Notes under the pieces: generated by a model | What the model was told of the DNA's origin: nothing | Seen by the model: only the letters and a program-made list of their open reading frames with translations | The model's database searches: none | Translations under genes and position numbers: made by a program | Shown: positions 23,079 to 24,124 of the stretch, one piece after another | Layout: each line of letters begins with the position of its first letter | How positions within the stretch are numbered: the first letter of the stretch is position 1 | Sequence record: PQ657803.1 | Direction: 5' to 3' (one strand) | Length of the DNA: 64,000 bases | DNA from: Klebsiella phage Roth37

Positions 23079-23291
23079 ATGAAAATCCATAAAACTGATG
23101 AAAAGCGTATCTACTTTATGATGGACTCTGGAGCATACGGATCTATTTCCCGAGAAGACGTGGTAAAACTTCTGCGATGCCGTAACCACTTGTGGAAAGA
23201 TAAAGTCGATCCCAGAACCTCTGAGTGCTTGTCCGAAAAGGCTGAGCAGTTGCGGAAAGAAGAAATGAGAAACTATATGGAGTTCCTGTAA
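23079..23291 (+). CDS. hypothetical protein (70 aa; start moved to the ATG with GGAGGA RBS)
   Basis: ORF-track ORF 23061..23291. No CxxxCxxC, so not an NrdG activase. Confidence 0.4.
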   Translation: MKIHKTDEKRIYFMMDSGAYGSISREDVVKLLRCRNHLWKDKVDPRTSECLSEKAEQLRKEEMRNYMEFL

Positions 23292-24124
23292 TGCGTAGAT
23301 TGATTATCGTAAGTGGTGCTGGATTGAGTGCTGATAGCGGAGTGCCAACGTTCCGTAAGGGTGCCATCACTCCCCTGTGGGATAAATACAAACTAACCGA
23401 AGTATGCAATATTCAGGCGTTCGATAAGGGGTTTCACTATCTGAACGACCCTATGCCCCCGTTAGAAGCCCTTTCTGAGGGATCTGATGATGAGCCTAGT
23501 CGCAACCTGTACGAGCTAACCCATGAGTTCTACAACATGCGGCGGCAGGAGCTGGGTACGGTGGAGCCTAACATTGCTCACTTGAGAATTGCTGAGTGGT
23601 ATGAGCGCTTCCCTGGTCAAGTCGTTAACTTTACTACTAACGTGGATGATCTGCTAGAGCGTGCTGGCATTCCCCATGATGATGTGATCCATGCTCATGG
23701 CTACCTTACGGAGATAATGTATCGCCGAGGTAAGGATGTGATCGTGGAAGATATCGGGTACACTGCGGTTGATTACCGTAAGTATGAGTGGGTTAAGCCT
23801 GCAATTACGTTCTTCGGGGAAACCGCTCCGTGGTATATGGGGCAGATCAACCTGTTTGATACCCTGACAACCCAGGATCTGGTAATCGTTGTTGGTGCCA
23901 GTAACCAAGTAATCGATTTTAATTGGGAGCTATTTCCGGCCCATAGTCGAGGTACTAAAGTGTGGGTAGTAAACAACGGTATTAACTACCTGGAGCAGAG
24001 TTTGTACGAAGAACGCGGGATCCCCGTTTGGTATGATACTGCTGCCAATGTATTTAGCAACAAACATTTCATAGGTCAAGTTGAGGCTTGGCTGGAGGAG
24101 AAAATTTATGTACCATCCCGATGA
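23291..24124 (+). CDS. Sir2-family (sirtuin-like) protein lacking the Zn-ribbon module
   Basis: GAGLSADSGVPTFR (sirtuin GAGIS..SGIPxFR), TTNVDDL (TQNIDxL), HAHG (catalytic His), VKPAITFFGE, LVIVVGAS. No CxxC pairs between the HG motif and the FGE motif. Confidence 0.75.
   Translation: MRRLIIVSGAGLSADSGVPTFRKGAITPLWDKYKLTEVCNIQAFDKGFHYLNDPMPPLEALSEGSDDEPSRNLYELTHEFYNMRRQELGTVEPNIAHLRIAEWYERFPGQVVNFTTNVDDLLERAGIPHDDVIHAHGYLTEIMYRRGKDVIVEDIGYTAVDYRKYEWVKPAITFFGETAPWYMGQINLFDTLTTQDLVIVVGASNQVIDFNWELFPAHSRGTKVWVVNNGINYLEQSLYEERGIPVWYDTAANVFSNKHFIGQVEAWLEEKIYVPSR

Follow-up and report, generated by a model that had tools for sequence, protein, structure and literature searches.

A predicted zinc-independent class III-type sirtuin in the nrdD operon of Klebsiella phage Roth37

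Results

A sirtuin with conserved catalytic residues

The 64,000-nucleotide (nt) stretch of Klebsiella phage Roth37 analysed here (sequence record PQ657803.1; hereafter the window, whose numbering is used unless stated otherwise) carries a gene, sir2, for a Sir2-family protein of 277 amino acids (aa). Most probably, at roughly 85%, the protein is a predicted-active, zinc-independent sirtuin of the class III type that is expressed early and is neither a defence-type NADase nor a dead decoy. We infer its enzymatic activity, acceptor and biological role; the reading we favour, a lysine deacylase with acyl-lysine of host or phage proteins as its substrate, is held at somewhat less than even odds. 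The gene and the elements within it on which these readings draw are the following.

23291-24124, plus strand: sir2, 277 aa, with ATG at 23291 and TGA at 24122-24124
23315-23356, plus strand: NAD-binding glycine-rich loop GAGLSADSGVPTFR (aa 9-22), aligning to GAGISAESGIRTFR of CobB
23405-23407, plus strand: Cys39, the sole cysteine, aligning to CobB Ala76 at the class III acyl-pocket position
23429-23509, plus strand: lineage-variable insertion of 27 aa (about aa 47-73) in the helical small domain, modelled with a predicted local distance difference test score (pLDDT) of 87-96
23531-23542, plus strand: Y81-N-M-R84, the class III YxxR motif for binding of the acyl carboxylate, equivalent to CobB Tyr92/Arg95
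23633-23653, plus strand: TTNVDDL (aa 115-121), nicotinamide-ribose binding motif; the canonical form is TQNID, with Q replaced by T here
23690-23701, plus strand: HAHG (aa 134-137), with His136 as the catalytic general base, aligning to HMHG of CobB
23702-23806, plus strand: Cys-free small module (aa 138-172) in place of the zinc ribbon, where CobB has C...CxCC
23810-23821, plus strand: FFGE (aa 174-177), wall of the acyl-lysine tunnel; WFGE with F190 in CobB
23888-23902, plus strand: VVGAS (aa 200-204), Rossmann strand and GxS motif; canonical GTS

Profile searches place the protein in Pfam SIR2 (PF02146), with 78.7 bits against a gathering cut-off of 24 (E=6.7e-22), and, over its full length, in PHROG 2162, labelled 'Sir2 (NAD-dependent deacetylase)' (E=1.8e-101), scores well outside what chance would give. 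An earlier note on this DNA, made from the sequence without database searches, had proposed a Sir2-family protein with intact motifs for catalysis and for binding of nicotinamide adenine dinucleotide (NAD). Both profile matches bear this out, and every motif it quoted (GAGLSADSGVPTFR, TTNVDDL, HAHG, FFGE and VVGAS) is found in the 277-aa translation.

Conservation was read from an alignment of 27 close homologues and from 140 relatives of at least 200 aa, one per 50% identity cluster. In the glycine-rich loop G9, A10, G11, S13, S16, G17, F21 and R22 are invariant among the 27 homologues. N117 is present in all 140 relatives and D119 in 135, while position 116 is Q in 84 and T in 44. H136 and G137 are likewise found in 140 of 140; His136 aligns with the catalytic His of CobB, which is His147 by the index offset. 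The tunnel wall retains F175 in 138 relatives and E177 in 125 (F190 of CobB is noted in PMC5107563), and the GxS motif retains G202 in 137 and S204 in 115, with GCS in most family members. Residues specific to the family and invariant in the 27 homologues include W30, E37, F44, Y74, W103, E141, Y182 and F210. The insertion at about aa 47-73 is shared by the Sugarlandvirus, Epseptimavirus and phi92-like proteins and is absent from the rV5-type members of 249-258 aa and from CobB. A Pfam scan of ten longer relatives (297-528 aa) returned SIR2 alone, plus one WG repeat.

Class III features

Among PDB sequences the protein matches E. coli CobB best (4e-17), along with Sir2Af1 of Archaeoglobus and SIRT5; all three belong to class III. 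An AlphaFold2 model built from the 27 homologues (mean pLDDT 90.3) has the Rossmann large domain and the small domain of solved sirtuins. In a Foldseek search of the PDB with this model CobB came first (TM score 0.83 normalised to the target, 25% identity), the probability was 1.00 for CobB, Sir2Af1 and SIRT5, and the top 50 matches were all deacylase sirtuins (CobB, Sir2Af1/2, SIRT5, Sir2Tm and SIRT2). The structural comparison that the earlier note had proposed thus yields the sirtuin fold with deacylase neighbours, and no defence SIR2 among the top 50.

Residues were equated by HMMER alignment to CobB, with the offset calibrated on the CobB mutant chains A76G and I131C (the change from A to G falls at the column of C39). 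By this alignment the protein has both the YxxR motif and a small residue at the position of Ala76. Position 39 is Cys in 111 and Ala in 25 relatives, 136 of the 140 in all, and is an invariant Cys in the 27 homologues. We take it to be the position of SIRT5 Ala86, where a small residue presumably completes the class III pocket for carboxylate acyl groups. Y81 is found in 132 relatives and R84 in 108, and F80, Y81, R84 and R85 are invariant in the 27 homologues; in CobB, Tyr92 and Arg95 are the reported determinants of desuccinylation (PMC6636992). Tunnel residues V118, I172 and F175 are equivalent to I131, V187 and F190 of CobB, and C39, Y81, R84, V118 and H136 are all invariant across the 27 homologues.

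The similarity to CobB stops short of orthology. With NCBIfam NF040867 the protein reaches 75.6 bits where 320 are required, and six other models also remain below their cut-offs. As the earlier note had suspected, then, this is no canonical CobB, every NCBIfam CobB model being far under its cut-off; judged from sequence, the protein is CobB-like and not a CobB orthologue.

Absence of the zinc site

The zinc cysteines are indeed absent, as had been claimed: the protein has one Cys, C39, and no Cys or His in aa 138-172, the equivalent of the CobB zinc module. The module has kept its length and is predicted to form a three-stranded sheet (DSSP 137-146, 149-154 and 168-172; pLDDT 91-95). None of the 27 close homologues has zinc cysteines. 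Among the 140 representatives the module holds at least four Cys in 82 and none or one in 45; 19 of the 25 nearest representatives are Cys-poor, and the majority of those further away have retained four Cys.

Zinc-less SIR2 domains occur in defence NADases, and the missing zinc ribbon had been read as a likeness to NAD-degrading defence effectors. The data do not support this. PF02146 is the sole Pfam family matched at E<=1, with SIR2_2 unmatched; the PADLOC defence models gave no match at E<=1; and the neighbours are deacylases, with the catalytic His and the pocket kept. The closest representative whose genomic context was read, P0127, is a zinc-less sirtuin with 46% identity (E=1.8e-38) on a 100-kb metagenomic contig (6001-6747 of that stretch). 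It follows a DctPQM TRAP transporter and precedes a metallophosphoesterase, with ABC transporters nearby, an ordinary bacterial chromosomal context. Two contigs read for the nearest non-phage relatives, that of P0127 among them, showed bacterial contexts. Given the mixture of zinc-less and four-Cys forms among the relatives, and the chromosomal setting of P0127, zinc loss is a trait of the lineage and no mark of an NADase. The zinc-less state itself was already published, which had been overlooked: absence of the zinc site in Sir2/CobB of KVP40-like Vibrio phages was described in 2016, in a paper that lists T5 too (PMC5107563).

Source lineage and annotation

The window comes from a T5-like phage of the genus Sugarlandvirus (Demerecviridae): at the DNA level its sir2 is 98-99.4% identical to the counterpart in 76 Klebsiella phages of that genus. 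The orthologues in this genus are annotated Sir2 or NAD-dependent deacetylase (for example Sugarland gp120), 100% identical proteins annotated Sir2 occur in several GenBank Klebsiella phage records, and the Sugarland genome paper already comments on the gene (PMC6256483). In one orthologue with 98.1% DNA identity (about 16 differences) the protein is identical, which argues for purifying selection on sir2.

Some database entries for this gene call for care. In Klebsiella phage vB_Kpn_3 the sirtuin gene is wrongly named 'tail assembly protein', and vB_KpnS_Uniso31 has it as 'putative tail protein'. For vB_Kpn_AM_K4, which matches best at the nucleotide level, the deposited sequence runs to 288,685 bp, against about 111 kb for the genus, which suggests a concatenated or mixed assembly.

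The nrdD-sir2 operon

The gene is the third of a group of six in the order nrdD - orf70 - sir2 - orf54 - DUF7415 - DUF7415, with overlap of start and stop codons at most junctions. Apart from sir2, its elements, including the open reading frames (ORFs), are as follows.

21138-21166, plus strand: sigma-70 promoter of the operon (putative), TTGACA, 17-nt spacer, TATAAT, with a TG extended -10
21189-23018, plus strand: nrdD, which opens the operon and encodes the anaerobic class III ribonucleotide reductase (Pfam NRDD PF13597, 6.3e-161; Gly_radical)
23079-23291, plus strand: small conserved ORF separating nrdD from sir2, of 70 aa if read from ATG or 76 aa from TTG at 23061
24108-24272, plus strand: 54-aa ORF of the same operon overlapping the 3' end of sir2 (phrog_5116, 2.3e-25)
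24259-24660, plus strand: first DUF7415 copy, 133 aa, same operon (PF24187, 2.6e-23; phrog_2502, 8.6e-40)
24657-25052, plus strand: second DUF7415 copy, 131 aa, last gene of the operon (PF24187, 8.7e-23; phrog_2502, 1.5e-43)
25063-25097, plus strand: strong intrinsic terminator closing the operon, 11-bp stem with 6 GC pairs, 3-nt loop and T-rich tail

The gene had been placed immediately downstream of nrdD, which is wrong: nrdD ends at 23018 and the conserved ORF of 70-76 aa intervenes. This ORF belongs to phrog_20147 (2.9e-46), a PHROG without assigned function, and corresponds to Sugarland gp121. Its stop codon overlaps the sir2 ATG (TAATG), and a GGAG ribosome-binding site lies 8-11 nt 5' of that ATG.

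The promoter sequence agrees with the consensus at 12 of 12 positions, is the best of the region and lies 23 nt 5' of the nrdD ATG; judged by the consensus alone, it would act as the operon promoter. In Sugarland a terminator is annotated at the same place as here. Bracketing by promoter and terminator, together with the overlapping junctions, points to a single early operon read by host RNA polymerase. The gene order matches that of T5 (T5.099 nrdD ... T5.102 Sir2 ... T5.106/107). T5.107 is the counterpart of the second DUF7415 copy by PHROG and operon position. The 54-aa ORF is 45% identical to a 60-aa gene downstream of Sir2 in PSa2, and T5.103 and T5.104 are in phrog_5116 too.

The promoter lies within a divergent intergenic region of 308 bp, between phoH (minus strand, start codon at 20880) and nrdD. 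The domain of the tandem DUF7415 paralogues that end the operon is also found beside nrdD in T4-like Klebsiella phages, which are unrelated and have genomes of about 166 kb, and DUF7415 proteins may assist the anaerobic ribonucleotide reductase in a way so far overlooked; T5.107 was scored 'Fit' (p=0.02) in a CRISPRi-ART screen. A functional link between sir2 and DUF7415 was considered and dropped because DUF7415 tracks nrdD, beside which it is seen in the T4-like Klebsiella phages, an association known from nrdD adjacency only. Elsewhere in the window an NAD-dependent DNA ligase (PF01653/PF03120) is encoded in two parts, at 31712-32674 and 32874-33623; the split ORFs lie about 200 bp apart, the first with the adenylation and OB domains and the second with HhH and BRCT, and the annotation of Sugarland is the same.

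Distribution and gene neighbourhoods in other phages

By tblastn the family is present in 974 phage records. The earlier note had asked about T5-like phages, and the family is found there as well as in rV5-like phages and Mydovirus (Vequintavirinae), phi92-like phages (Stephanstirmvirinae), KVP40-like Vibrio phages and jumbo phages. Over at least 97% of its length the window protein shares 48-64% identity with its homologues in T5-like phages, rV5 and Mydovirus, and through PHROG 2162 it belongs to the clade of rV5, Mydo and T5-like (SP15-type) sirtuins described by Iyer et al. in 2022.

The neighbourhoods differ among these lineages. In rV5 the locus comprises an RnlA-type RNA ligase, cREC (PF20274, 9e-14), Sir2 and MazG, with a kinase and a phosphoesterase upstream, and in Mydovirus it comprises RnlA (PF09511), cREC (phrog_1479), an AAA_33 kinase, a small ORF, Sir2 and a DNA ligase. 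In PSa2, T5 and Epseptimavirus the sir2 operon includes a HAD_SAK_2 phosphatase (PF18143, 4e-19), which occurs in 468 phage records, in some of them abutting sir2; Klebsiella phages make up 3 of these 468. No recognisable RNA-repair neighbour was found in phi92-like and KVP40-like phages by Pfam, PHROG and PDB sequence searches of EmilieFrey and KVP40. The gene directly 5' of the EmilieFrey sirtuin (2959-3489 of that stretch; 176 aa, phrog_9509) is labelled 'putative aminoacyl-tRNA synthetase', a label that Pfam, PHROG and PDB do not confirm.

For the Sugarlandviruses, tblastn found no homologue of RnlA, cREC, HAD_SAK_2, MazG or the phosphoesterase in the window or in the complete genome of Sugarland, which is 98.8% identical over sir2 at the nt level. 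The RNA-end-processing neighbourhood (RnlA, cREC, kinase, MazG, HAD_SAK_2, 2H/Nudix) is thus not that of sir2 in the window, and the Sugarlandvirus lineage keeps the sirtuin alone. Set against T5 and Epseptimavirus, the Sugarlandvirus operon lacks a block with a second small ORF and HAD_SAK_2, which in those phages separates the 54-aa ORF from the first DUF7415 copy (window 24124-24260, compared with 7793-8634 of the PSa2 stretch).

The phosphatase gene has attracted the sirtuin's name. PHROG 18062 is labelled 'Sir2 (NAD-dependent deacetylase)' and yet matches the C-terminal half of HAD_SAK_2 (7e-54; 8119-8634 of the PSa2 stretch), and the HAD gene is named as a second 'Sir2' in several RefSeq T5-like genomes (for example NC_048808.1 and NC_047881.1); this looks like a propagated mis-annotation. 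A link to the NARP3/NadR/PnuC genes was also considered and rejected. PSa2 has a 64-aa ORF upstream of sir2 labelled 'nicotinamide mononucleotide transporter', which has no homologue in the window, and Sugarland has no annotated NadR or PnuC.

Discussion

A lysine deacylase as the favoured reading

Host RNA polymerase would read sir2, the third operon gene, early from the consensus sigma-70 promoter. As in the family at large, the protein would bind NAD+ in the Rossmann cleft, an oxygen nucleophile of the substrate would displace nicotinamide at C1', and His136 would activate the ribose 2'-OH and so resolve the intermediate. The trio of Cys39, Tyr81 and Arg84 suggests a preference for acyl groups that bear a carboxylate, such as succinyl and malonyl, and the phage might in this way strip inhibitory acyl marks off the machinery it has taken over. 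A lysine deacylase is favoured because all solved sequence and structural neighbours found (CobB, Sir2Af1, SIRT5 and others) are deacylases and because both the lysine tunnel and the carboxylate pocket are conserved. It is favoured further because the family is acidic, with a median whole-protein isoelectric point (pI) of 4.9 and no conserved basic patch among the invariant residues of the 27 homologues, because a zinc-less homologue is chromosomal and because the Sugarlandviruses have no RNA-repair partner.

Several points weigh against this reading. Identity to characterised deacylases is 22-26%, the CobB equivalog models are missed widely, and the substrate-binding loop VYP of CobB is V-I-D/N in the phage family. 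The rV5-like and Mydo-like orthologues, about 50% identical, sit among an RnlA-type RNA ligase, cREC, a kinase and MazG, and sir2 is linked to HAD_SAK_2 in T5 and Epseptimavirus; such neighbourhoods of RNA-end genes are unexplained by a general protein deacylase. No published enzymology was found for any member of the phage family, T5-type orthologues included; in keeping with the earlier note, none of the T5 orthologues turned up in the literature as a characterised housekeeping deacetylase. The sole functional datum comes from a transcriptome-wide CRISPRi-ART screen of T5 on E. coli BW25113, in which T5.102 (Sir2, phrog_2162) was 'Not Fit' (p=0.72), as was T5.105, the HAD gene (phrog_1818) (PMC11879866, supplementary file 16). 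Under laboratory conditions sir2 thus appears to be accessory, and its function is accessory or conditional and non-essential. Of the host-takeover deacylase that had been suggested, the deacylase remains the leading reading, while a central role in takeover is unlikely since the T5 orthologue has no laboratory fitness effect.

Other acceptors and roles

A published alternative that had been overlooked is that phage sirtuins of this clade repair RNA, as Iyer, Burroughs, Anantharaman and Aravind predicted in 2022 from gene neighbourhoods, which they found in jumbo phages as a third lineage (PMC9503650, section 3.7.3). On that view an RNA 2'-phosphate serves as the nucleophile as in Tpt1/KptA: it attacks C1'' of NAD+, the O2'' of the adenosine diphosphate (ADP)-ribose then attacks the phosphate, Tyr81 and Arg84 hold phosphate and not carboxylate, and tRNAs cut by host anticodon nucleases are restored. 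We regard this as the chief rival to the deacylase, though less likely. The protein would then be a sirtuin-fold analogue of Tpt1/KptA and no protein deacylase, acting with NAD+ on damaged tRNA or RNA to remove or ADP-ribosylate 2'- or other terminal phosphates, a role to which we give well under an even chance. In Sugarlandviruses it may work alone, with host end-healing and sealing enzymes, against anticodon-nuclease defences. The RNA-end-processing neighbours confirmed here in rV5 and Mydovirus (Vequintavirinae) and, as HAD_SAK_2, in T5/Epseptimavirus speak for it, as does the 48-64% identity and shared PHROG between the proteins so linked and that of the window; the large tRNA set of the phage fits it too, and the dispensability of T5.102 on K-12 is consistent with counter-defence. 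The two-step mechanism of Tpt1 is chemically parallel to that of sirtuins (PMC11417386), so the conserved residues fit a deacylase and an RNA-directed enzyme alike and cannot separate them. What tells against RNA repair is that sir2 is under purifying selection even though RnlA, cREC, HAD_SAK_2, MazG and the phosphoesterase are absent from the window and the Sugarland genome, that T5-like phages are without an RNA ligase able to make a 2'-phosphate junction, and that phi92-like and KVP40-like phages have no recognisable RNA-repair neighbour. The family is, moreover, acidic (pI about 4.9), its invariant residues show no conserved basic surface, it keeps the hydrophobic lysine tunnel, and neighbours of the MazG, Nudix and HAD types might just as well act on O-acyl-ADP-ribose. 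We also know of no sirtuin shown to act on an RNA phosphate, which counts against it.

A further reading is mono-ADP-ribosylation of a host protein or other macromolecule to alter its activity, in the manner of SirTM-type sirtuins or T4 Alt/Mod. Sirtuin chemistry permits it, host-protein ADP-ribosylation is common among phages (PMC9503650), and the family is divergent with invariant residues of its own (W30, E37 and F44, for example). We consider it improbable, as the macro-domain gene that defines SirTM systems is found neither among the operon genes (Pfam, PHROG) nor in the annotation of Sugarland, the protein retains its catalytic His along with the whole deacylase tunnel, and the closest relatives are class III deacylases. 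An NAD+-manipulating factor or anti-defence decoy had also been put forward, as an acceptor-independent NADase of the ThsA, DSR or SIR2-HerA type or as a catalytically silent competitor binding defence proteins or signals derived from NAD. Phages and their hosts are known to contend over NAD+ (PMC13464706), and dispensability on K-12 would suit an anti-defence role. Both versions found little support and are very unlikely. All deacylase residues are conserved, which argues against a dead decoy; no defence model is matched at E<=1 and the top 50 structural matches are free of defence SIR2 proteins; and zinc loss, being shared with a chromosomal bacterial homologue, is a lineage trait. The protein is a stand-alone catalytic core of 277 aa with no fused or adjacent sensor or partner (SLOG, HerA, APAZ/pAgo or a large C-terminal domain), its neighbours being nrdD, small ORFs and DUF7415 proteins. 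As the phage has its own NAD-dependent DNA ligase, a bulk drain of NAD+ would be self-harmful, which argues against an NADase.

Significance and comparison with known systems

Databases and papers already cover the gene, its family, its lack of a zinc site and the two functional hypotheses, and the window itself adds little beyond the literature; its one useful feature is the partner-free sirtuin. About 1,000 sequenced phages, large and virulent, carry this sirtuin, many of them candidates for phage therapy against Klebsiella, E. coli and Salmonella. Should the protein prove to be a deacylase, it would clearly exemplify how a phage can rewrite the acyl-proteome of its host. Should it instead remove RNA 2'-phosphates, it would be the first sirtuin directed at nucleic acid and a new tRNA-repair arm against anticodon nucleases. 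As a natural case of the sirtuin without an RNA-repair partner, Sugarlandviruses offer a clean system for the enzyme on its own.

With the defence SIR2 NADases (ThsA, DSR1/2, SIR2-HerA and SIR2-APAZ/pAgo) the protein shares the SIR2 superfamily, the lack of a zinc ribbon seen in many of them and a setting of phage-host conflict; it differs in its deacylase tunnel and YxxR motif and in being encoded by a phage, which needs NAD+. The likeness to Tpt1/KptA is a possible functional analogy only, consisting in the use of NAD+, the release of nicotinamide and a reaction in which an anionic oxygen first attacks C1'' and O2'' attacks next (PMC11417386), whereas Tpt1 has an ADP-ribosyltransferase fold in place of the Rossmann-type sirtuin fold and no sequence or structure match between them was found. 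SIRT5 (human and zebrafish; 3RIY, 4F56), a desuccinylase and demalonylase, has the same class III fold and a carboxylate-recognising trio equivalent to C39/Y81/R84, but it is a mitochondrial eukaryotic protein with a CxxC...CxxC zinc site and 20-25% identity.

CobB (PDB 1S5P, 6RXJ-6RXS) is the best match in sequence and structure, sharing the GAGxS...FR, N/D, HG and FGE motifs, the two-domain layout and the class III pocket, in which A76/Y92/R95 are Cys39/Y81/R84 here. At about 25% identity, the phage protein differs from CobB in lacking the zinc cysteines, in having the 27-aa insertion in the helical domain, in TTNVD for TQNID and VID for VYP in the substrate loop, and in having its gene in a virulent phage. 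Its place is in the phage sirtuin clade of T5.102, rV5 gp080 and KVP40.0043 'Sir2/CobB' (PHROG 2162), with 48-64% identity to T5/Epseptimavirus, about 51% to rV5 and about 40% to KVP40 and with the zinc-less module in common. The rV5-like and Mydo-like phages differ in their set of RnlA, cREC, kinase and MazG, missing in Sugarlandviruses, and T5/Epseptimavirus differ in having HAD_SAK_2 and one small ORF, likewise missing in Sugarlandviruses, two to three genes downstream. With T5 the Roth37 gene nonetheless shares its place in the operon, after nrdD.

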